Under the pieces are notes generated by a model. That model made no database searches and was not told the origin of the DNA. It worked only from the letters and a program-made list of their open reading frames with translations. Positions 3,498 to 26,699 of a stretch of DNA of 64,000 nucleotides are shown in pieces; the first letter of the stretch is position 1, and each line of letters opens with the position of its first letter. The DNA is from Clostridia bacterium. Its GTDB lineage: Bacteria > Bacillota > Peptococcia > DRI-13 > UBA5745. A program made the translations under genes and the position numbers. The DNA lies in assembly GCA_018436095.1 (NCBI GenBank), contig JAHDMJ010000008.1, forward strand, positions 230,518 through 294,517. The letters run 5' to 3'.

Positions 3498-3630
3498 AAA
3501 TAGGTACATTACATCAAGTAGAAGCCATCCGCTTCTCACCTTACGAAAAATCGTCAAGGTAAACACGTATTTCAACTTTAAGTTGTGATGCTATTTAAGC
3601 GGAGGTTTCTCCGCTTTTATTTATTTACGG
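3498..3630 (+). promoter_or_regulatory. long 5' leader with terminator-like hairpin (L20-leader-type attenuator of the infC operon)
   Basis: Untranslated leader between the promoter and infC. Hairpin AAGCGGAG/CTCCGCTT (3597-3616) is followed by TTTATTTATTT. In Bacillus this operon is known to be attenuated by L20 binding its leader. The track's N-terminal extension ([14 protein letters not shown]) is this hairpin read as protein. Confidence 0.45.
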
Positions 3631-4812: not shown

Positions 4813-4841
4813 CATTCCGTGAGAGCGGGATGTCTTTTTTT
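4813..4841 (+). terminator. intrinsic terminator after rplT
   Basis: Stem CATTCCG (4813-4819) / CGGGATG (4826-4832) with one G.U pair, followed by a T7 run (4835-4841). Confidence 0.6.
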
Positions 4842-5195
4842 GTCGGAAATTGAGTTTTTGCATAATAAAAACATTTATGGAGAGTTGACAAATGGTGGAA
4901 AGGAGAATACCTTATACTCAAGTGGGAGTTCGTAAATTTTGGGATTGCTTTATTTAATAAGAAGAGGGATTAAAGATTAAGGAATTATGAGCTATAGAAA
5001 GGTTTGAGAACGTTTTAGAGAAAAGAGTGTTTTTCTAGTGCGAACCCTAAGTGGTAGTATGATTGACATATCTTTCGCACTAAAAATAGCATGAAAAGGT
5101 ATTGTGTGATGTAATATTATCCTTTGTTTTACATAATAGATGATAGCAAAATCTATATGTACGCATGTCTAAGGATAATATGACTATATGTAGCT

Positions 5196-5498
5196 GTCAC
5201 TCTCTGTGAAGAGAGTGGGGATTGAAATTTGGTGTGTTTTTGATGATTTTATTTTTGGTTCGGTCACTCTCTGTGAAGAGAGTGGGGATTGAAATCATAA
5301 GCGGCAATGGCTGCGGCTCCATCTCGCTGTGTCACTCTCTGTGAAGAGAGTGGGGATTGAAATCCGGTTGCGGTATCCCGCACAGATAAAATGCGTTGTC
5401 ACTCTCTGTGAAGAGAGTGTGGATTGAAGTCTCAATATAGGGATTTACCATCAACGCCTCAATGAGTCACTCTCCTCACGGAGAGTGTGGGCCGATGT
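5196..5498 (+). CRISPR. CRISPR array, leader-proximal part (4 full repeats plus 1 repeat truncated after nt 25)
   Basis: 33-nt repeats lie at 5196, 5263 and 5331 (GTCACTCTCTGTGAAGAGAGTGGGGATTGAAAT, three identical copies). A variant lies at 5398 (...GTGTGGATTGAAGT). The unit at 5466 is GTCACTCTCCTCACGGAGAGTGTGG followed by divergent GCCGATGT. Spacers are 34, 35, 34 and 35 nt. The palindromic stem and ATTGAAAT 3' end resemble type I-C-style repeats. An AT-rich leader lies upstream. Confidence 0.9.
5466..5490. repeat. left copy of the 25-nt core shared by both ends of the insertion (attL-like)
   Basis: GTCACTCTCCTCACGGAGAGTGTGG is identical to 14532-14556. It equals the first 25 nt of the CRISPR repeat. 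Confidence 0.85.
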
Positions 5499-5567
5499 CA
5501 AGTAAGGTTACAAAAATATTTTATATTTTTGCGAAATATCATTTTTAAATGAAAGTGAGTATCTTGC

Positions 5568-5613
5568 ATAAAAAGCAACTAAGCTGACACCGCTTGAAAA
5601 GCGACGCCAGCTT
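5568..5613 (-). terminator. strand-specific intrinsic terminator ending the defence operon
   Basis: On the minus-strand transcript, AAGCUGGCGUCGCUU-UUC-AAGCGGUGUCAGCUU forms a 15-bp stem. Three of its pairs are G.U, which would be A/C mismatches on the other strand. AGUUGCUUUUU follows the stem. It lies ~70 nt after the helicase stop. Confidence 0.5.
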
Positions 5614-5685
5614 GCATGATTTTTAGTCGTTTTATGATATGGCTCAATTTTTTTACCTTTTGGGAGAAGTTCAGCAAATAGTATT

Positions 5686-8037
5686 TTATTTAGCATCTGG
5701 GTATTTGAATCGCTCGACAATCTTTTTTTGTTCATCAGTCAACTCATCATATTTGTCATTAAAGATGATTTCTTGCTCATTAATTCCATCAATACAATTG
5801 TTTGCCCACTCAATTTCCTCAAAAGTTAAACCATAACGGAGCATCCAAATATCACGTTCGTCATCTGTTCCATATCGAATATATTTTGCTAACCTCAAGG
5901 CACGGTCATCATCTTTTGAGGTTTGATTTTGATAATACTGATGGAATATAGCATAAAAAATATCTGTGAGTTTAAAGCCTATAAGTTTATCCATGTAATC
6001 ATAGGTGTCATAAATAACACGATCATAATCGACCTGAATTGCTGGCATTGTGCCGAATAGGGAATAGTTATTAAGCGTTTTATCTGGAATATCATCGTAT
6101 TCCCTCAAAAACTGTGCTTCCAATTTACCAATTTCATCCGTCCTTTCGAGCTTTTCAAGTTGTGTACGTTCCTTCTTTTTTGAGGCATAATCATATCTGT
6201 GCTGACAAATTAAGCTGAAAGTTTTTTTGTAAACACGCCAAAGCATAATCTTTATTGCCTGATTCAGGATGCTCTTTTCAGCAGACACTAATTCGCGTCC
6301 AAGGTAAATCTGGTAAAGAGAATAGAAATCTTGATACATTTCTTTTCGATCATTTTGTTCTTCATTGTCCCATTGGGGATAGACAAGCTGTCCATCGTCA
6401 AACATCATATCTAACAAAGTTGGTATAATGGATGTTATTTCTTCCGTAGCAAGCTTTTGGACATCGTTATTCGTTAGATTGTATTCATCATTGAACTGAT
6501 CATTTTTTATTGCTTCCTTGAATTCTTCATACTTTTCGTCAAGTTTCTCATCGTCTTTGTCGAGATGAGATTGTTCCGATATGCGCTCTGGCTTGCTTAT
6601 AACCGAACGAAATGAACTTTGATTGTCTTTTTTTACAATTGCTGCGCCAATATCAAATACATCCTTTTCCGTAGAGCGCCCGGATCTGCCTATTAAGTTT
6701 TTTACAGAGAGAGGCTTGCTTTTTTCAAAGCGATTCAAATAAACCACATCAAACGGCATATTTATACCCTGTTCAAGTGTAGAAGTAGCAAAACAAATCC
6801 GGCAGAAGCCTTTCTGAGTAAAATGCTCCAATATCATTCTTGCCCGAAGAGGCATAGAACCGTGATGGACAACAATACCATGTTTCAGATGTTCAAGTGT
6901 TCTTGAAAAATAATTCGCGTTTTTTCCATTTGAGGCACCGACATATTCCCGCAGTTTTTCTACTAATTCCAATGCTTCGGGATCGGTTATCTGTTGGCAT
7001 AATTGAATGTATTTCTTAAAGTCTGTATAGATTTTGTCGTTGTAAATATGTTTTTTCGGTACATATATAAGGACGCTACCGCCATCATTTATTGCCTTTT
7101 CTATAGGATCAAAAGCGGCAGGAACACGGCGTTCTCCCATAACGCTTTTATCAATACCAAAATGATAAAACTGCCCCGTGGACTGATCGTGAGAATAGAA
7201 TATTTGCCCGACATTCTTTTGTTCATACTGAATAGCCGTGGCATTATCACTTATGTCTACGTTGTTTTTCTTTAATTGCGCTTCAGGGTTAGCTACAAAA
7301 GGATGGGCAAAAACGCACTTAGCGTTAGGAAATGATTTTTGAACACGACGAACTATACTGTCAAAATATAAGCCTCGAACTGAATCTTCATCGCTTAGCT
7401 GGGCTTCATCAAAAAGCACAAGCCCTATGTTCAGTTTATCTTTTAACTTGAACAGCTCTCTTGCCCGTTCCGGGGTTAGAATGAAAATATTGCGTTTTGC
7501 GTGTTTAGTATTGATTATATCGATGAAAGTAAGGATATTAACAGTTTTATCTTCAATAATTTCATGAACACGATCAAAATACTCATTTATTAAAGCCCTT
7601 GAGGGAACGATAACGGCAACATCGTAATCTGCTGTTTTAATAAGATTTCGAAAGACAAACGATTTCCCGGTACTCGTCGGAGCCGAAAAGCTGAAGGTTT
7701 TCATTTGCCGAATCTTCTTCAAAATATCTGCCTGAACAGGAGTATATTCTTCGCCGAACTCTTCTTTTATGTATTTTCCATAATCGGCGAAGATAAGACT
7801 AAGAAAAGTGTCGGGGTTCGGTTTTTTGTAGTATAGGCCCATCATTTCAATGATATCAGATTCATGTTCTTTAAAATAGGCAGGTTGAAAGAGCTTGAGA
7901 TATGAAAATATCTCAAGTACAGAACTGTCGACTGAACCTTCCTTAAAGAGTCTTTGCCGAGCGTAAGCAAGATGTGCATCAAGATTTGTCCCGTCGCGGA
8001 TTTCAGCTATTCGGTTTAAGGATTTTGCAACTATCAT
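5686..8037 (-). CDS. hamB: superfamily-2 DEAD/DEAH-type helicase, HamB-like (Hachiman-type defence helicase)
   Basis: Motif I FSFSAPTSTGKS, motif II LFDEAQL, motif V ATSTLEQGINMP, motif VI LIGRSGRS. A ~300-aa acidic/aromatic C-terminal region has no motif I recognise. Its start overlaps the stop of the upstream small gene (ATGA at 8034-8037). Confidence 0.7.
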   Translation of the reverse strand: MIVAKSLNRIAEIRDGTNLDAHLAYARQRLFKEGSVDSSVLEIFSYLKLFQPAYFKEHESDIIEMMGLYYKKPNPDTFLSLIFADYGKYIKEEFGEEYTPVQADILKKIRQMKTFSFSAPTSTGKSFVFRNLIKTADYDVAVIVPSRALINEYFDRVHEIIEDKTVNILTFIDIINTKHAKRNIFILTPERARELFKLKDKLNIGLVLFDEAQLSDEDSVRGLYFDSIVRRVQKSFPNAKCVFAHPFVANPEAQLKKNNVDISDNATAIQYEQKNVGQIFYSHDQSTGQFYHFGIDKSVMGERRVPAAFDPIEKAINDGGSVLIYVPKKHIYNDKIYTDFKKYIQLCQQITDPEALELVEKLREYVGASNGKNANYFSRTLEHLKHGIVVHHGSMPLRARMILEHFTQKGFCRICFATSTLEQGINMPFDVVYLNRFEKSKPLSVKNLIGRSGRSTEKDVFDIGAAIVKKDNQSSFRSVISKPERISEQSHLDKDDEKLDEKYEEFKEAIKNDQFNDEYNLTNNDVQKLATEEITSIIPTLLDMMFDDGQLVYPQWDNEEQNDRKEMYQDFYSLYQIYLGRELVSAEKSILNQAIKIMLWRVYKKTFSLICQHRYDYASKKKERTQLEKLERTDEIGKLEAQFLREYDDIPDKTLNNYSLFGTMPAIQVDYDRVIYDTYDYMDKLIGFKLTDIFYAIFHQYYQNQTSKDDDRALRLAKYIRYGTDDERDIWMLRYGLTFEEIEWANNCIDGINEQEIIFNDKYDELTDEQKKIVERFKYPDAK

Positions 8038-8723
8038 ATGTTCACCGCCACTATCACAATTTCTTCAAACGGAAGAAGCTTCATGAAATCTTGGTGTTTA
8101 ATCACGCTATCAATCAGGCTGGTGCTTGCCGTGGATTTTGCAGAAAACGCTATTGCAAATCCCTTGAAGCCATCGTTCGCTCTGCTTAGGGCTTCGGAAG
8201 TACAAAAATCGCGCAAATCAGCTAACTGTTTAATATCTTTGGAATCCTCTATAAATTTTGAGACTTGTGAAATCGCAGTAGCGTGAGCACTTTGTCGTGA
8301 GTTGTATTTTGCCTCTCCGAAAATAACGGTATTGGTAGTGTTATTTTGACTGTGAAAATCGAAACCGGGGTTGCCAGAGATTTTCATACCAAGCAGTTCA
8401 GCCAGAGGGATATGTAGGTAGCTCATCTGGCTTAGGAGTGATTCACGCGCCAGCTCAGATACCACATATTCACCAGCTTCTTTAGTTACATTATCATTCG
8501 AGCAATCATCGAACTTTTTCTTGATATCAGCGATTGTTTCCTCCGCGCGCTTCTTGAAACTACTTTTCAAATAATCTTCATCAAAACGGCTCAACCATGA
8601 TAAATCCATAAGTACTTCAATTATTTGGGAGAGTGTGTCCTGCAAATTTTCGGGATCAATGCGGATGAAGGTAATGTTCTTATTATCCTCGTGAGCCACA
8701 GATTTATATTCAATAACCTTCAT
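8034..8723 (-). CDS. hamA: small PD-(D/E)xK-like protein, HamA-like (DUF1837-type)
   Basis: 229 aa, soluble. It has a nuclease-like signature GFDFH (D122) ... FGEAKY (E137, K139) preceded by AGEYVVSELARE. It sits directly upstream of, and overlaps by 4 nt (ATGA), a large SF2 helicase, which is the Hachiman gene order. Confidence 0.55.
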   Translation of the reverse strand: MKVIEYKSVAHEDNKNITFIRIDPENLQDTLSQIIEVLMDLSWLSRFDEDYLKSSFKKRAEETIADIKKKFDDCSNDNVTKEAGEYVVSELARESLLSQMSYLHIPLAELLGMKISGNPGFDFHSQNNTTNTVIFGEAKYNSRQSAHATAISQVSKFIEDSKDIKQLADLRDFCTSEALSRANDGFKGFAIAFSAKSTASTSLIDSVIKHQDFMKLLPFEEIVIVAVNI

Positions 8724-8736
8724 TGCAATATCCCTC

Positions 8737-10962
8737 CTACAGTATTACATCGCGGAGCAACGACCAAAAAGAACTGGAAACGTCGTCGCTATACTCCTCT
8801 GTGCAAATGCATAGTTCGCCGCTCTTTTTATCTTCACGGACAAAACCACCCTTCATGTCGTGTCTTTGCACAAAATCTTTCAATACAGCAAACTTGCGAG
8901 GTGAGAATTTGTCTATATCCTGACTGTTGCCGTATTTATCAAAGCCGCCTTTTGTTTCAATAATCCAGCATTCGCCATTAACACTGATGATATAGTCGGG
9001 AAAGAAAACGCGAACTTTCTGAAAGGCATCCTCGTACACGATGGAAAAATACTCCGATCCTTTATCACCGTTTTTATATAACCATTCTACGGAAGAAGCC
9101 GTTTCGCAGAATTTTTCAAATGCTTTTTCTGAGGAAGAACGAGGAGCGGCAGAAGATAAATAGCCTTCGTAAACATTCTTTTTCCAAATGGTTTGAAGCT
9201 TTTCTGACGCATCATAGGTAAACTCACATTCATGTAAGAATCTGAACTCTTTGTCCGTCCGCTTGTCGTTTAAAGTGTCCGATATCAATCTGATCTGACT
9301 CAGAGTAGCCGCCGATGCATCTCGCACGATATTTTTCAAAAGTTCGCGATTGTTGAGCGTAAAGGCATATAATTCGCTGGTCGTGGTGAATATAAGAATT
9401 TGATAGGTACTCTTATTCGAGTTTTTCATAAAGAACCTTCTGAAAATTGCGTTCAAATGCTCGTATTTTAAACCCACACGCAGAGCAATTTCACCGACAA
9501 TGTGGTGATACTCTCTGCCATGAATAGTTGTGCTTACAGGTGCCTGAATATATGTGGTGTTCAAATCTTGGTAGCTGCTTCTTTCTCCGGCGGCAATAAT
9601 CTCATTTTCTTCAGCGACATACTGCCTTACCTGATCCGAGAAGATAAAGCCGTTAGCTTCCAAGCGTTTTTTATTTTCAACTGTTCTTCCGTCTATGTTA
9701 TATTGCTTTTTGAAATAGCTGTGTATCGCTTTAAGAATCTCTCGTTGATCCCGTGCAAAAGGAACTCCGGAAACTTGTTCACAAGTCAGGCGAACCGATT
9801 TATATTCTGACTTGAGATACAGCGTGGCACCTTCCAGCGCACCTTTTCCGAGACTTTGCTTTACGCTTTCGGTAAATTTTTCGTCAAGTGTAAACAGATA
9901 GCAGCTATCGAGTAACGGATCACCGTAGTGCTTTGCCTCCGGCATCCGGCGGATGCGCCCGATTGTCTGGATTTCAAATGTTTCACTCATATGGTCACGG
10001 AGTTTAACGAGGATGTGTGCTCTTGGGCAGTCCCAGCCTGTAGCAATTGCTTGTTTGATGATTATTGCAATCGGCTTCGCGCTATTCGGTACAATTTCTT
10101 CTTCCGATGAGTTCTCATGCTTTTCGGAAAGACGAACCGCAAGCAATCCGTTGTCATAAGTTATGCCTTTTGCTTCAAACCACTTTTCAACGCCATCCAA
10201 GAGGACATCGTTTTTGTTCGGAAGCTGTACGACAATAAGAGGGTTCACTTTTGAACCACGAGAAGAGAACGACGAATAGAGCTTCCTGTGTTTATCAAGA
10301 GCCTTTGTCAGTAGATAATCTATCTGGTCTGTAACTTCATCGCCTTGCTTTATACCCTCGTTAATAACAAGGACTTTCTTTATAAGCTCTGCGGCAATAA
10401 CCTCCGCTTCCGGCACTTCAATGCGTGTTGCATCGGTGTATGCTTTTGGCGTAGCAGAAGCACGGATGATTTTATCCGTTTTGAAATAATCAATTATTTC
10501 CTTGCCTTTGATGGTGTCCCCTTCATGGCTTTCATCAATTATAATTTTAAAGGAAAGACCAGCGTCAAGAGCGTTTTCTATATGTTCAAGGAAGTTTGTC
10601 CGCTCAGTCGGTTTGAGCGCGTTATTGCTGGACTTGTTCAGCGACTCCCAGTTAATAAAGCAGACATCATTTTCTTCAAAGCCACCTGTCATAACATCTA
10701 AGAGTGTTTTTGTCTGCGAGTTATGGATATACTTATCCATCTTCTTTTTGCTTTGCTCTTCCAGATCGCCTTTGCCCGGAGTAAGCCAAATAAATACCGT
10801 TTTTGCGAATGATTTGAGATACTCATCCATAAAATGGGTGAGTATAATTGTCTTGCCGCTTCCCGTGCAGCTTTTTAGTATAATATCCCGCTTATCATCT
10901 TGCATAGCTACCATAAGGTCAGCAATAGCTTTTAATTGAAAATCAGCTAATGTAATACTCAT
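8737..10962 (-). CDS. res: type III restriction enzyme Res subunit (helicase-nuclease)
   Basis: Motif I SCTGSGKT, motif II IIDESH, motif III ASAT, motif VI QTIGRIRR. A C-terminal PD-(D/E)xK is present (FFPDYIISVNGECWIIETKGG). It starts 5 nt after the stop of a beta-class methyltransferase gene. Confidence 0.8.
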   Translation of the reverse strand: MSITLADFQLKAIADLMVAMQDDKRDIILKSCTGSGKTIILTHFMDEYLKSFAKTVFIWLTPGKGDLEEQSKKKMDKYIHNSQTKTLLDVMTGGFEENDVCFINWESLNKSSNNALKPTERTNFLEHIENALDAGLSFKIIIDESHEGDTIKGKEIIDYFKTDKIIRASATPKAYTDATRIEVPEAEVIAAELIKKVLVINEGIKQGDEVTDQIDYLLTKALDKHRKLYSSFSSRGSKVNPLIVVQLPNKNDVLLDGVEKWFEAKGITYDNGLLAVRLSEKHENSSEEEIVPNSAKPIAIIIKQAIATGWDCPRAHILVKLRDHMSETFEIQTIGRIRRMPEAKHYGDPLLDSCYLFTLDEKFTESVKQSLGKGALEGATLYLKSEYKSVRLTCEQVSGVPFARDQREILKAIHSYFKKQYNIDGRTVENKKRLEANGFIFSDQVRQYVAEENEIIAAGERSSYQDLNTTYIQAPVSTTIHGREYHHIVGEIALRVGLKYEHLNAIFRRFFMKNSNKSTYQILIFTTTSELYAFTLNNRELLKNIVRDASAATLSQIRLISDTLNDKRTDKEFRFLHECEFTYDASEKLQTIWKKNVYEGYLSSAAPRSSSEKAFEKFCETASSVEWLYKNGDKGSEYFSIVYEDAFQKVRVFFPDYIISVNGECWIIETKGGFDKYGNSQDIDKFSPRKFAVLKDFVQRHDMKGGFVREDKKSGELCICTEEYSDDVSSSFWSLLRDVIL

Positions 10963-10967
10963 ATAGA

Positions 10968-12620
10968 TTAACCCTCCAATCCTTTATAGTAATAGTCAGG
11001 AATAACGAACAATTCAATGCCAAGCAATTTAAGCGTTTCTTCCTGTTCGGCGGATAGTAGGACATCATGCCCGACATAGAGCCGCTTGCATGGATTGAGG
11101 GCTTCGGTGTTATCAAAAAAAGAATCAGCTTCTTCATCGGTCAAGACAATGGCGTTCTGGGCATTGTCTGTGAAATTTACGCCGTTTTCCAGTTCGACCA
11201 GTTCCCTCACATGTTCCAGCAATTTCGGCGCATAATCGTAGTAAAAGGTCGGATTGCCGTCTTTATCTTTTTGAGATACAAAATCAACACAGTAATACTT
11301 TAATGACTCCTTGTATTTATCTCTGTCAATAACTCGTCTAATGCGTTCATATGTGACTTCGCGGCAAATATTATTTTCGTTGTTTGTGCAAAGAATAAAG
11401 CGTCTGGTACCGCCATCTTCGGCATTCAGCTTCATAACAGCGTGAGCAGTTGTACCAGAACCTGCGAAGAAGTCAAGAATGGTAGCATTTTTGGACTTTA
11501 GACTAATATCCAGTATTCGCTCGATCAGCCTTATTGGTTTTGGATTTGTAAACATTCCCGCTTTGCCAAAAACGCTTTTCAAATCTCTTGTCCCTTCTTG
11601 GGTATCTCCAACTTCTGCTCTATACCAAATAGTTTTACATACAGTTCCTTGCTGAACTTCGGAAAGAAATGTTTTTATTCGAGGCACATTATTTCCTTTT
11701 GCCCCAAACCAAATTCGGTTATCCTTTTTCAGTGCCTCATAGTTTTCTTGAGATGTTACCCAACTACGGCTGGCTGTAGGGATGACAACTCTTCCTGACG
11801 GAGTTGTGATTGGGTACATATATGCTTCAGATGCCGTTTTTACCGTAAAATCACTTGAAGCCCACACACCTCTTGGATCATTATCGGGATTTGAGTATCT
11901 TTTATCCATTGTTTCAGTTCTACTCAATAAATTGGGATGCCACTTTTCCTTGTTCTTGGCATAAACAAGAATGTGATCATGGCTATCAGATAACCATTTC
12001 GCGTCGTTTTGTGGTGAGAATTTTTTTTCCCAAATAACATTAGCAATAAAATTCTGATAACCAAAAATCTGATCGCAAAGCAACCGCAAAGCTCCGACCT
12101 CATTATCATCTATGGAAATAAAGATAACGCCAAAATCAGACAGAAGGCTCTTAGCAAGCTCCAACCGACGCAACATGAATGAACACCATTTGGAATGTCT
12201 AAATGTATCATTTTTATCTACTAACAAATCAGAGTAAGTAAAACCTTCTTTTAATGTATTGTACGGTGGATCGATATAGATAAGGTCTATCTTTCCACGA
12301 TGCGTTTTTAACAGCAATTGCAAAGAGGCAAGGTTGTCTCCCTCAATGAGAAAGTTCACCTGCCCATCATTGTTGATAAACAAATCAGGTTCTTCAGTAA
12401 GTACAGGTACATTCTCCGCAAGGATTTCATCTATTTCCTCGCGATGCTCTTCAAACACTAAACCATATTTTTTAGACTTGACTTCCTTTTCAAGTTCAGA
12501 TAGGTACACCATCAAAACCCCTGTGTTTTCGTCATGTGGGGTTTCTGCAATATACGTTCGAATGGCTTCGATTTTGTTAATTAAGTTATCCCTTTTTTCT
12601 TTGGAGATATTAGTGCTCAC
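10968..12620 (-). CDS. mod: type III Mod DNA methyltransferase (beta-class N6A/N4C)
   Basis: Motif IV IYIDPPYN precedes motif I LDFFAGSGTTAHA, with a long variable region between them (beta-class order). It is adjacent to Res. Confidence 0.85.
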   Translation of the reverse strand: MSTNISKEKRDNLINKIEAIRTYIAETPHDENTGVLMVYLSELEKEVKSKKYGLVFEEHREEIDEILAENVPVLTEEPDLFINNDGQVNFLIEGDNLASLQLLLKTHRGKIDLIYIDPPYNTLKEGFTYSDLLVDKNDTFRHSKWCSFMLRRLELAKSLLSDFGVIFISIDDNEVGALRLLCDQIFGYQNFIANVIWEKKFSPQNDAKWLSDSHDHILVYAKNKEKWHPNLLSRTETMDKRYSNPDNDPRGVWASSDFTVKTASEAYMYPITTPSGRVVIPTASRSWVTSQENYEALKKDNRIWFGAKGNNVPRIKTFLSEVQQGTVCKTIWYRAEVGDTQEGTRDLKSVFGKAGMFTNPKPIRLIERILDISLKSKNATILDFFAGSGTTAHAVMKLNAEDGGTRRFILCTNNENNICREVTYERIRRVIDRDKYKESLKYYCVDFVSQKDKDGNPTFYYDYAPKLLEHVRELVELENGVNFTDNAQNAIVLTDEEADSFFDNTEALNPCKRLYVGHDVLLSAEQEETLKLLGIELFVIPDYYYKGLEG

Positions 12621-12835
12621 TCAGTTTCCTCCTGTTCAGGCAGAATTTCCATTATGTCTTCAATGCCGCAACTTAGTGCAGCACAAATCTTTACTAATAC
12701 ATCTGTTTGCACATTCTCACCTTTTGTAAGCTTTGCAACCGAAGCAGAGCTGATTCCTGTCATCTGACACAAATCACGCTTCTTTAAATCTTTATCAATC
12801 AACAACTTCCATAGCTTTTTATAGCTAACAATCAC
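12617..12835 (-). CDS. XRE/Cro-type helix-turn-helix regulator (possible controller protein of the operon)
   Basis: 72 aa. LKKRDLCQMTGISSASVAKLTKGENVQTDVLVKICAALSCGIEDI is a typical HTH_XRE. It has a GTG start, and its stop overlaps the mod start by 4 nt. Confidence 0.75.
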   Translation of the reverse strand: MIVSYKKLWKLLIDKDLKKRDLCQMTGISSASVAKLTKGENVQTDVLVKICAALSCGIEDIMEILPEQEETE

Positions 12836-12867
12836 GATTACACCGCCTAAATGTCATTTATTTAATT

Positions 12868-12896
12868 ATTATATTAAATATTGTTGGAAAATACAA
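12868..12896 (-). promoter_or_regulatory. candidate promoter of the HTH-mod-res-hamAB operon
   Basis: On the minus strand: TTGTAT (12896-12891), a 17-nt spacer, TATAAT (12873-12868), ~30 nt upstream of the HTH start. Confidence 0.4.
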
Positions 12897-13004
12897 GCTA
12901 AAACTTCGCGTTCGCAAAATTATTGTTTTTGAAACATAATATTTTATTTTTGTCCATAAACAGATTTAATGTCACTACAGATAATACAAGTTTAATTAAC
13001 TTAA

Positions 13005-14603
13005 TTATACAAGTGGCGCATCGGAAAACGTGCACTTAATCTCAATGCGATCCTTGTCATAGATAATTACCCGGTCGATCAGCGCAACGACAATTTCACG
13101 AGTCAGGCTGCCGTCAAAGGGCAGGTCGAAAAGCACATCATACAATGGGTCTGATATGGTTTCTTTTGGATTTTCTTTTATGGAGAGTTCCATGGCGCGA
13201 ACCTGCTCAGTGAAGCCTTGCAGCTTTCTGTCGGCATCCTCACGTAAGCGAAGGTATTCTTCTTTTTTCATATCTCCGTCACAGAAACGTGTATAAAAGG
13301 ACAGCTTGTCGTTCTCAATGGCATCAATCTGCCGTTCAATGACCTGGATACCTTTCATGCGTTCCATTGTAGCCGCCGTTTGCTTTTCATCCCGGCTCCG
13401 CCGCTTTTTCTCCTTTGCCGCGAATGCACTGTATAATCCACGCAAAGCCGCAAGCACTGTTTCCTCCACAGCGGATACCTTGACACCCTTATGCGGACAA
13501 TCACCGTTTGTATAGAAGGTCTTGTACCCGCACAGATAGGCCGGCTTTTTCGCATTGCTCCGCGACATTACATGACCGCAGCCGCTGCAGCGCACCTTTC
13601 TGGATAACGGACGAACTGTGTGCGGACGTTTTACGATAGATTTTGGGGAGCGGAAAAGGCTCTGAACCGCCTCATATTCCTCCTTGGAAACAATCGCCTC
13701 ATGACGGGTTGGAGAGATATGCCATTGCTCCTTGGGGACAAGATGGTGCCGGTTGTCGCCTACAACACTGCACCGTGTCATGCCCTGCACCAGTAACCCG
13801 GTGTATCGCACATCCTTTAATATCGCCCGGACGGTTCCGTCCGTCCAGACATTATTGGTGTTGTAGCCGACCTTGCGCCCGGTACACTCCAGTTTATAGC
13901 GCCCCGGTGTCAAGATGTTTTCTGTGTTCAGGATTTTTACGATCATCTTCACACCCATGCTATCCAGTGCCATTTTATAAATGCGCTGGACAATGGCGGC
14001 AGCGTCCGGGTCTACCACAATTCTGTGAATATCCGCGCTGTCCTTAATGTAGCCGAACGGGGCGGTTGACGCATGATACTTCCCGCCGTCCCGCAGGGCG
14101 GCAATGCCGGAGCGCACCTTGCGGGAGAGGTCTTTGGAATAGTAGTCGTTACACAGGGATTTGAACGCGACGCTCACATCGCCTGCCGAGCATTCCTGCC
14201 TGGCGCTGTCAAAGCCGTCATTGACACTGATGAACCGTACACGAAGGAAGGGGAAAATCTGCTCAAGATAGTCCCCAACCTCAATGTAGCTCCGCCCGAA
14301 CCGGGAAAAATCCTTCACAAGAATACAATGGATTTCGCCGCGCCTTACTTTTTTCAAAAGCTCTATGATGCCGGGGCGGTTGAAGTTTGTTCCTGTATAA
14401 CCATCGTCGGAAAATTCGAGGAGCTTTGCACCGCACAGGTCAGGGCAGGAAGCAATATAGCTGTCCAGAATATCACGCTGACCCTCAATGCTCTGGCTTT
14501 CGCCGTAGCGCCCATGGCCCTGGCCCGGCAGGTCACTCTCCTCACGGAGAGTGTGGATTGAAGTTCTTGGTATGCTTGTATCAGAGAAAGGAGGCGATGT
14601 CAC
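13005..14603 (-). CDS. large serine recombinase (5' end aberrant; possibly N-terminally truncated)
   Basis: ESQSIEGQRDIL...FSDDGYTGTNFNRPG...ILVKDFSRFGRSY...VRFISVNDGFDS is the resolvase-type catalytic domain. It is followed by the recombinase domain, a Cys-rich zinc-ribbon (CSGCGH...CGY...C) and a coiled coil. The first 24 codons of the track ORF (14532-14603) are CRISPR repeat/spacer DNA. No in-frame ATG lies in the first ~200 codons encoded by the element. Confidence 0.8.
   Translation of the reverse strand: MTSPPFSDTSIPRTSIHTLREESDLPGQGHGRYGESQSIEGQRDILDSYIASCPDLCGAKLLEFSDDGYTGTNFNRPGIIELLKKVRRGEIHCILVKDFSRFGRSYIEVGDYLEQIFPFLRVRFISVNDGFDSARQECSAGDVSVAFKSLCNDYYSKDLSRKVRSGIAALRDGGKYHASTAPFGYIKDSADIHRIVVDPDAAAIVQRIYKMALDSMGVKMIVKILNTENILTPGRYKLECTGRKVGYNTNNVWTDGTVRAILKDVRYTGLLVQGMTRCSVVGDNRHHLVPKEQWHISPTRHEAIVSKEEYEAVQSLFRSPKSIVKRPHTVRPLSRKVRCSGCGHVMSRSNAKKPAYLCGYKTFYTNGDCPHKGVKVSAVEETVLAALRGLYSAFAAKEKKRRSRDEKQTAATMERMKGIQVIERQIDAIENDKLSFYTRFCDGDMKKEEYLRLREDADRKLQGFTEQVRAMELSIKENPKETISDPLYDVLFDLPFDGSLTREIVVALIDRVIIYDKDRIEIKCTFSDAPLV
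14532..14556. repeat. right copy of the 25-nt core (attR-like)
   Basis: Identical to 5466-5490. Here it continues into the proper repeat 3' end, ATTGAAGT. Confidence 0.85.
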
Positions 14604-14631
14604 TCTCCTTACGGAGAGTGTGGATTGAAGT
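14532..14631 (+). CRISPR. CRISPR array, distal part (2 repeats, 1 spacer)
   Basis: GTCACTCTCCTCACGGAGAGTGTGGATTGAAGT (14532-14564), a 34-nt spacer, then GTCACTCTCCTTACGGAGAGTGTGGATTGAAGT (14599-14631). Confidence 0.85.
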
Positions 14632-14800
14632 CTTTTCAGATATAGCTCCTAGAAATTGATGAATAGTCGTATGATAGCGGGTTAGCGTTGCCGGCATCGC
14701 AGAGAAGGGAACTAAACCATAGTCAAGTGATCCGTGGAGCGGATATGTAAAATTTTAATTCTCCTAGCGGAGAACGACTGTGTATCACAACCGGAAAGTC

Positions 14801-24263: not shown

Positions 24264-26699
24264 ATGAGAGTATCCTGGAAATGGTTAAAAGAACTGGTTG
24301 ATATAGATATAACCCCGGAGGAAGGGGCGGCTGTGCTGACTAAGGCCGGCCTGGAGGTAGAGGGTGTAGAATACCTGGATAAAGGCGTGAAAAATGTGGT
24401 CACCGGCCGTATCCTGGAAGTGGAGCCCCATCCCCAGGCGGACAAGCTGGTGGTGACCAAAGTAGACGCCGGTTTGGAAAAGCCTCTTACCATCGTAACG
24501 GGAGCCCCTAATGTCAAGGCGGGCCAATGCGTGCCGGTGGCTTTGATAGGAGCCAAGCTGCCCAATGACAATCATCCGGAAATCCTGCTGTCTCAGTTGA
24601 GGGGCGTCTGGTCCGAGGGCATGATGTGCGGCGCCGATGAAATCGGCCTGGATGTCGGCAAACTTTCCCCGGAGGAAAAAGAGGGCTTGTATCCTCTGCC
24701 GGCGGATACGGAGCCGGGCCAGCCCATTGTGGAATTTCTGGGTCTGGACGACGTGGTGCTGGAGTTGGGTCTGACCCCTAACCGGGCGGATTGCATGGGC
24801 ATGATCAACGTGGCCAGGGAATTGGCAGCCCTTACCGGCTGTAGGCTGACTTTGCCTGCCATCACCCCCTCTGAGCCCGGCGGTGAGTGCGCCCGGCTTG
24901 CTTCCATAGAAGTGGAGGAAGGAGACGCTTTGTGTTACCGCTTTGGCGGCCGCATGGTCAAGGACGTAAAGGTAGGGCCTTCCCCCCAATGGATGAGACA
25001 GCGGCTGATGGCCATGGGCATGCGTTCCATCAATAATCTGGTGGATATTTCCAATATTGTCATGCTGGAAATGAACCGTCCTTTGCATTTCTTCGATTTT
25101 GATAAATTAGAAGGCAAAGGCTTATGGATCCGCCGGGCCAAGGCAGGGGAGACCATGGAGACTCTGGACGGCCAATTGCGCCAGCTTACGGAGACCATGA
25201 CTATGGTAACGGATCAGGCAGGCCCTGTAGCTATAGCCGGCATCATGGGCGGCGCCCGCACCGAGGTGACGGCTGCCACCGATAAAATCCTTATTGAAGC
25301 TGCCTGCTGGAACGGTCCCAAAACCAGGAAAACCGCTCAAGCCCTGGCCTTGCGTTCAGAAGCTGCCCAGCGCTTTGAAAAAGAAGTGGATATTCAGGAA
25401 ACCATCGCCGTTATAGACCGGGCCGTACAGTTAATTGAAGCCTGCCAGGCAGGAGTTGCCGTGCCCGGACATATCGACGTTTACCCCAAGCCCCAGGAGT
25501 TGCCCCAAACCCGGGTCAGCCTCTCCCGTATCAATTGGCTTTTGGGTATAGAGGTGACGAAGGAGGAGGCCGCCGCCATTTGGCAAGCTCTGCAAATCAA
25601 AGTAATTAAAGAAGAAGGCGATGGTTGGCTGCTGGAAGCCCCCTCCTGGCGGAAGGATTTGCGGATCGAAGAGGATTATGTAGAAGAAATCGTGCGCCTC
25701 TATGGCTATGATAAGCTGGCGGCTACTTTGCCGGCGGGATCCGCCACTCAGGGCTACCGGCTGCCGGGCCACCAGCTGCGCCGCCGTTTAAGCCAGACCA
25801 TGATCGGCTTAGGCTACCGGGAAGTCATCAATTACAGCTTCATCAATCCGATCAATCTGGACCGGCTGCAAGTGCCCCAGGAGCATCCCTGGCGGCAAGC
25901 GGTGCCTTTAATGAATCCTTTGTCCGAGGAGCAGGGTATCCTGCGGACCACCGTATTGCCCAGCATGATTCAGCGGGCGGTATTTAATATCAACCGGCGT
26001 AACCGGGATCTGCAGCTTTTTGAGATGGGCAAGGTTTATCTGGCCAAAAAAGGCAATGGCCAACCGGAAGAACGCTGGACCCTGGCCGCCCTTTGCACCG
26101 GCGTCAGCCCCAAAACCTGGCTGGCCCCGGAAAGCCCTCTGGATTTCTATAGTTTAAAAGGCGCGGTGGAAACCCTGCTGGCCGCCGCCGGCGCCGGCAA
26201 TCCCCGTTTTGAAAGAGCTCAGGATATTCCCGGCCTCCATCCAGGCCGTAGCGCCCGGATTTTCTGCGGCAATAGGCAATTAGGCTATATCGGCGAAGTG
26301 GACCCCAAGGTGGCGGCGGTTTTTGAAGCGGATCAGCGCCTTAGCGTTGCTTCCCTCGATGTGGAAGAGCTGTTGGCTGCCTCGATCCAAAAAGAATACC
26401 GGCCCCTGGGCAAATATCCGGAAATGACCCGGGATCTGGCCGTGGCTTTACCGAAAGAAGTAGCCGCGGCAGCGGTGGAGGAAAAAATTAAAGCTTGCGG
26501 CGGCAATCTGCTGCAGGATGTACAGCTTTTCGACGAATACCAGGGCAGCCAGTTAGGGGAAAATCAAAAGAGTTTGGCTTTTGCCTTGACCTGGCGCTCC
26601 GATGAACGTACACTGAAAGATGAAGAAATTCAAGTGTTGCACCAGGAGATCGAAAAAGAGCTGGCTACAGCCTTCGGCGGTATCATCCGGGGCAGATAA
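24264..26699 (+). CDS. pheT: phenylalanine--tRNA ligase beta subunit
   Basis: 811 aa. MRVSWKWLKELVD at the N-terminus, a tRNA-binding domain, and B3/4 and B5 domains. It follows pheS. Confidence 0.95.
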   Translation: MRVSWKWLKELVDIDITPEEGAAVLTKAGLEVEGVEYLDKGVKNVVTGRILEVEPHPQADKLVVTKVDAGLEKPLTIVTGAPNVKAGQCVPVALIGAKLPNDNHPEILLSQLRGVWSEGMMCGADEIGLDVGKLSPEEKEGLYPLPADTEPGQPIVEFLGLDDVVLELGLTPNRADCMGMINVARELAALTGCRLTLPAITPSEPGGECARLASIEVEEGDALCYRFGGRMVKDVKVGPSPQWMRQRLMAMGMRSINNLVDISNIVMLEMNRPLHFFDFDKLEGKGLWIRRAKAGETMETLDGQLRQLTETMTMVTDQAGPVAIAGIMGGARTEVTAATDKILIEAACWNGPKTRKTAQALALRSEAAQRFEKEVDIQETIAVIDRAVQLIEACQAGVAVPGHIDVYPKPQELPQTRVSLSRINWLLGIEVTKEEAAAIWQALQIKVIKEEGDGWLLEAPSWRKDLRIEEDYVEEIVRLYGYDKLAATLPAGSATQGYRLPGHQLRRRLSQTMIGLGYREVINYSFINPINLDRLQVPQEHPWRQAVPLMNPLSEEQGILRTTVLPSMIQRAVFNINRRNRDLQLFEMGKVYLAKKGNGQPEERWTLAALCTGVSPKTWLAPESPLDFYSLKGAVETLLAAAGAGNPRFERAQDIPGLHPGRSARIFCGNRQLGYIGEVDPKVAAVFEADQRLSVASLDVEELLAASIQKEYRPLGKYPEMTRDLAVALPKEVAAAAVEEKIKACGGNLLQDVQLFDEYQGSQLGENQKSLAFALTWRSDERTLKDEEIQVLHQEIEKELATAFGGIIRGR

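Follow-up and report, generated by a model that had tools for sequence, protein, structure and literature searches.

A conserved composite of type III restriction–modification genes and a divergent Hachiman pair in a Clostridia bacterium

A 64,000-nucleotide (nt) stretch of DNA from a Clostridia bacterium (contig JAHDMJ010000008.1, positions 230,518 to 294,517; hereafter the window, in whose numbering positions are given, with L-numbers denoting comparison loci) carries five tightly spaced genes in which a type III restriction–modification (R-M) system runs directly into a two-gene module related to the defence system Hachiman. Its four core genes, mod, res, hamA and hamB, form a conserved composite of a type III R-M system and a divergent Hachiman clade that is invisible to current hidden Markov models (HMMs), and do not amount to a wholly new kind of system. 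That these four genes are co-inherited as an evolutionary unit is indicated by their spacing, which is conserved, by their co-divergence and by the monophyly of the linked HamB proteins, and we favour, as rather probable, a reading in which one promoter drives two mechanistically autonomous DNA-targeting systems in a modular two-layer unit.

Operon anatomy

All five open reading frames (ORFs), with coordinates re-read from the sequence, lie on the minus strand. From promoter to terminator, the features are:

12868..12896, minus strand: candidate sigma-70-type promoter, TTGTAT (12896-12891), 17-nt spacer, TATAAT (12873-12868)
12617..12835, minus strand: HTH gene, encoding a 72-amino-acid (aa) Cro/C1-type helix-turn-helix (HTH) regulator, GTG start
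10968..12620, minus strand: mod, 550 aa, type III Mod
8737..10962, minus strand: res, 741 aa, type III-like Res
8724..8736, minus strand: res-hamA spacer of 13 nt (GAGGGATATTGCA), with the Shine-Dalgarno sequence GAGGGA abutting the res stop codon
8034..8723, minus strand: hamA-like gene, 229 aa, divergent PD-(D/E)xK nuclease with D122, E137 and K139
5686..8037, minus strand: hamB, a 783-aa Ski2-like superfamily 2 (SF2) helicase
5581..5613, minus strand: intrinsic-terminator-like hairpin found by a scan, 15-bp stem and T-rich tail, 70 nt past the hamB stop

The coordinates and all four junctions, re-read, agree with the original prediction of five co-oriented, tightly spaced genes. By direct reading, the HTH stop and the mod start share GTGA, a 4-nt overlap, and the hamA stop and hamB start likewise share ATGA. 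Between these two overlaps, mod lies directly upstream of and co-oriented with res across a gap of 5 nt (TAATCTATATG), the corresponding gap being 0–5 nt in most related loci, and the res–hamA junction reads TAG-GAGGGATATTGCA-ATG, its two codons 13 nt apart. The G+C content of the operon is 37–42%, against about 50–52% in the remaining window.

The candidate promoter is missing from the promoter-scan list because its -35 element, TTGTAT, matches at just 3 of 6 positions and so falls below the scan threshold. Its TATAAT -10 element is invariant across four orthologous cassettes, as are the Shine-Dalgarno sequence and the GTG start. At the other end, the terminator that had been placed at 5568-5613 was recovered by the scan as a minus-strand hairpin at 5613..5581; it falls outside the block conserved with sister cassettes, where homology stops at 5695. 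We infer that the five genes are co-transcribed from one promoter.

Conservation of the four-gene block

The distribution of the block was followed in two surveys, one a HamA-family-profile scan in which each GTDB species was represented by a single genome (80 loci) and the other a scan of metagenomes with a Res profile (80 loci, with Res 56–77% identical to that of the window). A gene-neighbourhood search from the HamA-family profile finds the pair fused to R-M genes in 29 of the 80 GTDB species loci, in which Mod and Res lie immediately 5′ of HamA-HamB; the remaining loci are HamA-HamB without this Mod-Res. In the metagenomes, HamAB of this clade stands behind Res in 11 of 80 loci. Loci with the linked arrangement come from three phyla: Bacillota (Paenibacillus, many Clostridia, Dielma and Selenomonadaceae), Actinomycetota (Gardnerella vaginalis) and Cyanobacteriota (one Gastranaerophilaceae metagenome-assembled genome). 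Cultured carriers of the four-gene block include Paenibacillus silvae CGMCC 1.12770, Dielma fastidiosa JC13, Gardnerella vaginalis GED7760B and Paenibacillus sp. HB172176.

Across this range the spacing hardly changes. The Res-HamA spacer is 9–17 nt long, and its Shine-Dalgarno sequence overlaps the res stop or lies flush against it (TGAGGTG or TAAGGAGG), in 39 of the 40 loci with a measurable spacer, and the 4-nt overlap of hamA and hamB is kept in 39 of 40 loci. Moreover, identity to the window falls in parallel for Res, HamA and HamB (95/93/95, 76/68/76 and about 57/53/59%, respectively), and pairwise distances correlate between Res and HamA (0.78) and between Res and HamB (0.67; Mantel p=0.001), the correlation being lower for Mod (0.53). 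In the HamB tree every linked HamB falls in one clade, nested within stand-alone HamAB of Bacillota; such monophyly implies one ancestral capture. Spacing, co-divergence and monophyly together bear out the claim that the genes form one unit. The original prediction had also called the packing tighter than is usual in defence islands; the arrangement is more than chance, with equal spacing recurring in ~40 independent loci.

Mere adjacency, in which five independent systems happen to be tightly packed in a defence island with no selective link, would draw on the general clustering of defence genes, on the richness of related-locus flanks in AbiEii, Fic, FRG-domain and TIR-like genes, and on the variability of the slot behind res described below. 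We consider it highly improbable: Res, HamA and HamB co-diverge over ~40 loci in three phyla, the linked HamB clade is monophyletic, the 9–17 nt spacing is near-invariant, and the cassette has been transferred as one sharp-ended block.

Two loci inside the linked HamB clade have a reduced arrangement. In L024 (3-4394), Mod (aligned to residues 59–501) is followed directly by HamA, res being deleted, and in L042 (3019-6030) a NOV_C protein and other genes replace Mod-Res and hamA is frameshifted.

A divergent HamA paired with HamB

The 783-aa protein is HamB, a predicted Ski2-like SF2 helicase: it matches the PADLOC HamB model at 3e-52 and 20 further HamB models, contains the Pfam domains DEAD and Helicase_C with Walker A (GKS) and DEAQ motifs, and finds among PDB structures 9wh1_B (5e-25), HamB 8vx9_B (1e-6) and AbpB 8zue_B (2e-4). 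Its 229-aa partner is harder to place. Direct assignment to HamA by sequence failed with Pfam, PADLOC, NCBIfam, PDB and hhalign, and structure comparison alone succeeded. A precomputed PF08878 match is flagged 'weak', and relatives of the protein score against PF08878 (DUF1837/HamA) at E-values of 0.006–0.024 and 15–17 bits, the cut-off being 25. No relationship was found by hhalign between the family profile and a bona fide HamA (that of L164; probability 0.7%), and phmmer and profile searches of PDB gave only spurious matches. By contrast with these sequence searches, the AF2 model (predicted local distance difference test, pLDDT, 89.9) has as its best Foldseek match E. coli HamA 8vxy_A, over the full length (probability 0.97, E 2e-3, template-modelling (TM) score 0.45), and also matches HamA 8vx9_A and AbpA 8zue_A. 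D122, E137 and K139 are invariant in 31 homologues.

Because of its fold, its D-ExK motif and its pairing and 4-nt overlap with HamB, we call the 229-aa protein a probable divergent HamA that current HMMs miss, the moderate TM score being support and not proof. The Hachiman-like pair of the original prediction is thus recovered, through the PADLOC HamB match and the HamA-like fold, and E137 and K139, which it had singled out for mutation, correspond to the published E138/K140 and are the likely catalytic residues. Of the PADLOC search of the last two genes, the HamB half succeeded and the HamA half did not, the 229-aa protein missing the HamA models.

A guide to the activity of the pair is E. 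coli HamAB, in which a free single-stranded DNA end entering HamB leads to ATP hydrolysis and activation of HamA (PMC12278908). The E. coli system is activated by DNA-damaging agents without phage, and its activated HamA also degrades host DNA (PMC12278908).

Mod and Res

Judged by its sequence, Mod belongs squarely to the type III methyltransferases, matching Pfam N6_N4_Mtase (1.7e-39) and, over its full length, PADLOC MTase_III (9.8e-118), and among PDB structures H. pylori Mod 6k0w (3e-56) and EcoP15I Mod 4zcf_A (4e-42); the order of its motifs, with DPPY (~aa 115) followed by the target-recognition domain (TRD) and then FAGSGT (~aa 385), is that of a beta-class N6-adenine DNA methyltransferase. 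Among cassettes otherwise ~90% identical, the central ~370–1500 nt of mod (~1.1 kb) are replaced in what appears to be a TRD swap, as would be expected of a target-recognition domain under diversifying selection and of an active R-M system.

Two smaller features of mod may be recorded. An A8 homopolymer tract lies at 12021-12028 (codons ~198–200, mod nucleotide 593) and is short for phase variation. In L002, L003, L004 and L006 (L002:5905-7757), whose cassettes are 93% identical, gene calling divides mod into two ORFs (327 + 272 or 285 aa); the split may be a frameshift or an assembly error, and res and hamAB are intact there.

Res has N-terminal SF2 ATPase motifs (TGSGKT, DESH and QTIGRIRR) and a C-terminal PD-(D/E)xK nuclease motif (PDY...ETK), all invariant in 25 homologues. 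Pfam ResIII matches at 5.6e-21 and PADLOC REase_III, partially, at 7e-14. The AlphaFold model is mediocre (pLDDT 69), and its best Foldseek match, EcoP15I Res 4zcf_C (E 2.8e-6), has a TM score of 0.21–0.24 and is weak evidence. These features suggest a divergent type III-like helicase-nuclease.

A variable slot behind res

Among the metagenome loci, the space after res is a slot that typically begins 4–18 nt downstream and in most loci holds cargo unrelated to HamAB:

about 40 loci (e.g. L103:7743-9199, L119:8212-9665): unannotated pair of 307- and 179-aa proteins, starting 4–18 nt past the res stop
4 loci (e.g. L090:2668-4659): 664-aa protein
2 loci (e.g. L137:3267-5319): DUF4238 protein and 388-aa protein
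1 locus (L130:5217-8282): PD-Lambda-5_A (6e-83) and AAA_15/AAA_21 ATPase
1 locus (L164:7134-10128): unrelated canonical Hachiman, HamA 315 aa (PF08878, 6e-13) and HamB 703 aa (PADLOC, 1e-97)
remaining loci: miscellaneous cargo or none

The 307- and 179-aa pair tracks one large Res clade and is a candidate defence module; neither its members nor the 664- and 388-aa proteins have a match in Pfam, PADLOC, NCBIfam or PDB. In L164 the same Mod-Res family captured Hachiman a second time, independently. The HamAB studied here also has stand-alone relatives directly behind other restriction genes: in L039 (5711-9975) behind an McrB-like AAA_5/EVE protein and an RE_LlaJI ORF that ends at the hamA start, in L044 (613-3852) behind a type I HsdR, and in L042 (1798-3012) behind a NOV_C nuclease-like protein. 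The second capture and the stand-alone relatives both suggest that this Hachiman lineage has come to lie beside restriction enzymes repeatedly, through some affinity for them. In the gammaproteobacterial loci L051 and L054, HamAB is preceded by ligA and by another ligase-like gene, which has a BRCT domain.

Further genes occur elsewhere in these loci. A 381-aa FRG-domain protein (4e-21) is encoded between mod and res in L012 (2453-3595), L136 and L160, and an unannotated ORF of 130–150 aa occupies the same place in L013 (4832-5224), L089, L135, L148 and L156. In many related loci, co-oriented defence-type genes abutting mod encode an AbiEii toxin with DUF6680, Fic/DOC with HTH_17, DUF6650 and a weak TIR_2-like protein (upstream examples are L113:1331-2762, L017:4412-5320, L026:5223-6146, L103:3412-3882 and L145:3526-4356). 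The neighbourhood of the related loci is a packed defence locus.

Two autonomous layers or one coupled system

In the reading that we favour, the first layer would be restriction: by what is known of the family, Mod would methylate adenine in a recognition sequence and Mod-Res would cut unmethylated DNA after ATP-triggered sliding between sites. In the second, if E. coli HamAB is a guide (PMC12278908), HamB would load on free or damaged DNA ends and free the HamA nuclease to degrade DNA. HamAB would then be swappable cargo immediately 3′ of res, translated from the Shine-Dalgarno sequence abutting the res stop, captured once and co-inherited with Res since. The two layers would be kept together because they are complementary, restriction acting against unmodified DNA and Hachiman against phages that escape restriction or make aberrant DNA ends. 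Breaks made by Res might be a natural HamB substrate too, since Res would make double-strand breaks solely in unmodified DNA, and this makes sequential action plausible even without physical interaction. Coupling via restriction-made DNA ends is thus a plausible addition to two otherwise autonomous systems.

Obligate sequential coupling goes further: the type III enzyme would be the sequence-specific sensor and HamAB its dedicated downstream shredder, HamB loading Res-made ends and HamA destroying the molecule, such that repair, recombination rescue and methylation escape are blocked, much as RecBCD acts after restriction or Cas3 after Cascade. Such a scheme would account for a HamAB clade found essentially only behind this Res family and co-diverging with Res, for the translational-coupling-type spacing kept in 39 of 40 loci, for the unrelated Hachiman in the same position in L164, and for the stand-alone relatives behind RE_LlaJI (L039), HsdR (L044) and a NOV_C protein (L042); published Hachiman, moreover, is switched on by free DNA ends and by DNA damage (PMC12278908). 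It fits poorly with the unrelated cargo that most Mod-Res members carry in place of HamAB, with the same-size HamAB relatives in stand-alone loci, and with L024 and L042, which lost res or Mod-Res yet kept hamAB (hamA being frameshifted in L042). Nor did a coarse test find linkage-specific insertions or fixed residues, either between linked and stand-alone HamB or between HamAB-linked and other Res. The Res tree intermingles HamAB-linked Res with Res bearing other cargo, which limits any claim of coupling, and since activated E. coli HamA hits host DNA also (PMC12278908), each successful restriction event would be costly. We regard obligate coupling as a doubtful proposition. Of the functional coupling raised in the original prediction, the evolutionary linkage stands; the linkage-specific features of Res and HamB that might have marked it were not found, and Mod-Res mostly occurs without HamAB.

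The slot itself suggests, tentatively and with rather low probability, a broader form of coupling in which Mod-Res serves as a platform for interchangeable effectors encoded 3′ of it, handing marked or broken foreign DNA to whichever effector is plugged in, so that the four components form a single system. Were this true, the HamAB clade would be a restriction-licensed DNA shredder, PD-Lambda-5 or the DUF4238 pair would play the effector part in other loci, Mod-Res-HamAB would be one immune system and not two, and the 307- and 179-aa pair and the 664-aa protein would be new defence effectors.

A number of observations weigh against the reading of one promoter driving two autonomous systems, some bearing on its parts and some on its premise of autonomy. 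As to the promoter, the scan finds nine more promoter-like sites inside the operon on the minus strand; the region as a whole has 30 such sites against 23.7 +/- 4.5 in shuffles, and because this total is within chance, internal promoters are neither shown nor excluded. The claim of a single promoter thus keeps its candidate, with an invariant -10 element in four cassettes, and loses its uniqueness, which is not demonstrable. As to the proteins, the 229-aa protein has no match to Pfam PF08878 or PADLOC HamA at E<0.01, and none in NCBIfam. Res scores 20 bits against an NCBIfam type III endonuclease model with a cut-off of 564, and PDB sequence searches gave it no match to any structure; it is tied weakly to characterized type III Res, and of the predicted type III R-M system the Mod half is secure (MTase_III 9.8e-118, EcoP15I Mod 4e-42) and the Res half divergent. 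As to autonomy, the exclusive long-term linkage of one HamAB clade with one Res family exceeds simple island co-localization and, like the capture of a second, unrelated Hachiman in L164, hints that the two are functionally related in some specific way. The autonomy of the modules is nevertheless supported by the common occurrence of Mod-Res without HamAB, which accompanies just 11 of the 80 metagenome Res loci, and by the lack of linkage-specific indels or fixed residues in Res and HamB; two autonomous systems, modular and co-transcribed, fit the data at least as well as mechanistic coupling does.

The HTH regulator

The 72-aa protein is of Cro/C1 type (Pfam HTH_26, 1.7e-19) and scores 78.9 bits, under the cut-off, against a VanU-like model of NCBIfam. 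Co-regulation by an XRE/controller protein had been proposed, and this proposal is weakened: the HTH gene stands next to mod solely in the window and L001–L009, i.e. in cassettes at least 90% identical to that of the window, and other loci have AbiEii, Fic, DUF6650 or no gene upstream of mod. The protein was rejected on this ground as a conserved controller of the operon family. In this lineage only, it would most likely autoregulate the promoter by analogy with R-M controller proteins, being small, encoded first in the operon and overlapping mod by 4 nt. A test for a palindromic C-box operator found in its promoter region only short AT-rich inverted repeats, together with a semi-conserved TTTGC-N4-GCAAA-like element just upstream of the promoter, a weak operator candidate drawn from four sequences only.

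Mobility of the cassette and its genomic setting

The window shares with L009, L008 and L002, at ~90% nucleotide identity, a block running from 5695 to 12874/12928. This block holds the five genes and the promoter and nothing else, and because exactly these are common to the sister contexts we view the five-gene cassette as a discrete mobile module. The context of L002–L006 is that of a conjugative element, with a relaxase, MobC and a 2777-aa SNF2 protein. The ~7.2-kb cassette is on this evidence horizontally mobile; a tblastn search of PLSDB and INPHARED for plasmid or phage carriage gave no match to HamA.

Mobility bears on a further explanation, in which HamAB is a guard or addiction module that fires upon inhibition of restriction or loss of Mod, when self-cleavage would leave DNA ends, and by killing the cell stabilizes the cassette. 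Its carriage in conjugative-element and island contexts is what such a module would lead one to expect, Hachiman does respond to host DNA damage (PMC12278908), and an abortive effector inside an R-M operon has precedent, PrrC in the EcoprrI type I locus being the nearest parallel. Set against these points are the split mod of L002–L006 with res and hamAB intact, which under a strict guard would be lethal unless it is an assembly error, the heterogeneity of the other slot cargos, and the lack of evidence for a physical Res-HamAB interaction. We think the guard explanation improbable, and retain the modular pairing of two autonomous systems.

In the window, the cassette, its terminator region and a large serine recombinase gene make up a 9,041-bp island (5491-14531) that interrupts a type I-C-like CRISPR array, with these features:

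5196, 5263, 5331 and 5398: CRISPR repeats left of the island
5466..5490, plus strand: left island junction, a partial CRISPR repeat with the same sequence as nt 1–25 of the one at 14532
14532..14564, plus strand: right island junction, where a full CRISPR repeat is succeeded by a spacer and then by another repeat (14600-14632)
13005..14531 (ORF to 14603), minus strand: large serine recombinase, Pfam Resolvase (from profile position 14), Recombinase and Zn_ribbon_recom

The 25-nt direct duplication fits either a single crossover at the repeat or an insertion with deletion. The array was considered as a part of the cassette and rejected, its repeat occurring in no other locus except L001, which has the same sequence as the window. 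No cas genes were found among the ten large window ORFs checked, all of which are housekeeping or non-defence genes. An AT-rich leader-like region (4840-5195) follows the rplT terminator, and the island sits in a conserved housekeeping neighbourhood extending from rplT to a SpoU methylase gene and on to pheT (large ORF 24264-26699). An Rfam scan of the window returned only the L20 leader (RF00558, 66.7 bits, 3510-3628), upstream of infC-rpmI-rplT.

The recombinase gene lies outside the block common to sister cassettes, and its G+C content is 51.7%, against 37–42% for the operon. It is apparently 5′-truncated, its first ~24 codons being read from CRISPR repeat and spacer sequence, and HTLREESD, of which HTLREES is encoded by a CRISPR repeat, replaces the catalytic YxRLSxDD motif of its homologues (L026, L028, L086 and L156); because the catalytic YxRLS motif is missing, the enzyme is probably inactive. 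Rebuilding the gene across the ends of a circular form was tried and rejected, the in-frame upstream sequence running into a stop, still without a YxRxS motif.

Comparison with known systems

How Hachiman tells foreign DNA from that of its host is unsettled, the published model resting on free DNA ends and DNA damage. The operon sets a Hachiman clade directly behind an enzyme predicted to make sequence-specific breaks in unmethylated DNA only, and so offers a natural test case for whether a helicase-nuclease can be licensed by restriction breaks and for how the host is kept safe from two nucleases. Two further consequences concern annotation. The HamA models of Pfam and PADLOC miss an entire HamA subfamily, and Hachiman systems of such a kind are under-counted because of this; and the variable slot points to at least two unannotated candidate effector sets, the 307- and 179-aa pair and the 664-aa protein. 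Neither a Mod-Res-HamAB operon nor a variable effector slot following a type III res turned up in the full-text literature searched, the coverage of which was incomplete.

In type III R-M systems Mod hemimethylates an asymmetric recognition site at adenine, and unmethylated DNA is cut after ATP-triggered sliding between sites, of which two, unmodified and in inverse orientation, are required. With EcoP15I and EcoP1I (4ZCF) the operon shares the order mod-res, a beta-class N6-methyladenine Mod homologous to EcoP15I Mod, a Res with an N-terminal SF2 DEAH-type ATPase and a C-terminal PD-(D/E)xK domain, and an allele-variable central domain of mod. EcoP15I Res, at about 970 aa, is longer than the 741-aa Res found here, which has no detectable sequence similarity to it. 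Unlike EcoP15I-type systems, moreover, the operon runs straight into two more genes and, in this lineage, starts with an HTH gene.

Small HTH controller (C) proteins of R-M systems include C.AhdI and C.Csp231I (PMC2275141, PMC4321490). The HTH gene here resembles theirs in being small, first in an R-M operon and overlapping the next gene, and perhaps also in a candidate palindrome-like element near its own promoter. C proteins, however, typically precede a type II endonuclease gene, whereas this one precedes the mod of a type III system, and it is of the HTH_26, VanU-like kind and missing from most members of the operon family.

The reference for Hachiman type I is HamAB of E. coli ECOR31 (PMC12278908), to which AbpAB (PMC10732053) may be added. 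Shared with these are a nuclease-helicase pair in which hamA lies directly upstream of and overlaps hamB, a Ski2-like HamB, and a HamA of PD-(D/E)xK-type fold with ExK at positions equivalent to E138/K140. Unlike them, the HamA described here has only 229 aa and misses both PF08878 and the PADLOC models, so that standard tools would probably report an orphan HamB, and the pair is without a promoter region of its own, being joined directly to the 3′ end of an R-M operon.

Several extended forms of Hachiman operon are known: PezAT-HamAB of Streptococcus, in which the upstream Pez module regulates expression from a shared promoter across an 18-bp gap (PMC13064477), trypsin-MBL-Hachiman (10.1101/2025.09.03.673762) and HamC-HamA-HamB. 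All resemble the present operon in having a Hachiman core co-operonic with another module under a shared promoter. Here, unlike in PezAT-HamAB and trypsin-MBL-Hachiman, the partner is a complete R-M enzyme and not a toxin-antitoxin or protease module.

The anticodon nuclease PrrC is embedded in the EcoprrI type I R-M locus and restrained by physical binding to EcoprrI. It is like the HamAB pair in being a second-line effector whose gene lies within the transcription unit of an R-M system and is passed on together with that system; the two differ in the type of R-M system, in the type of effector and in the physical binding, which is known for PrrC and for which there is no evidence in the operon described here.

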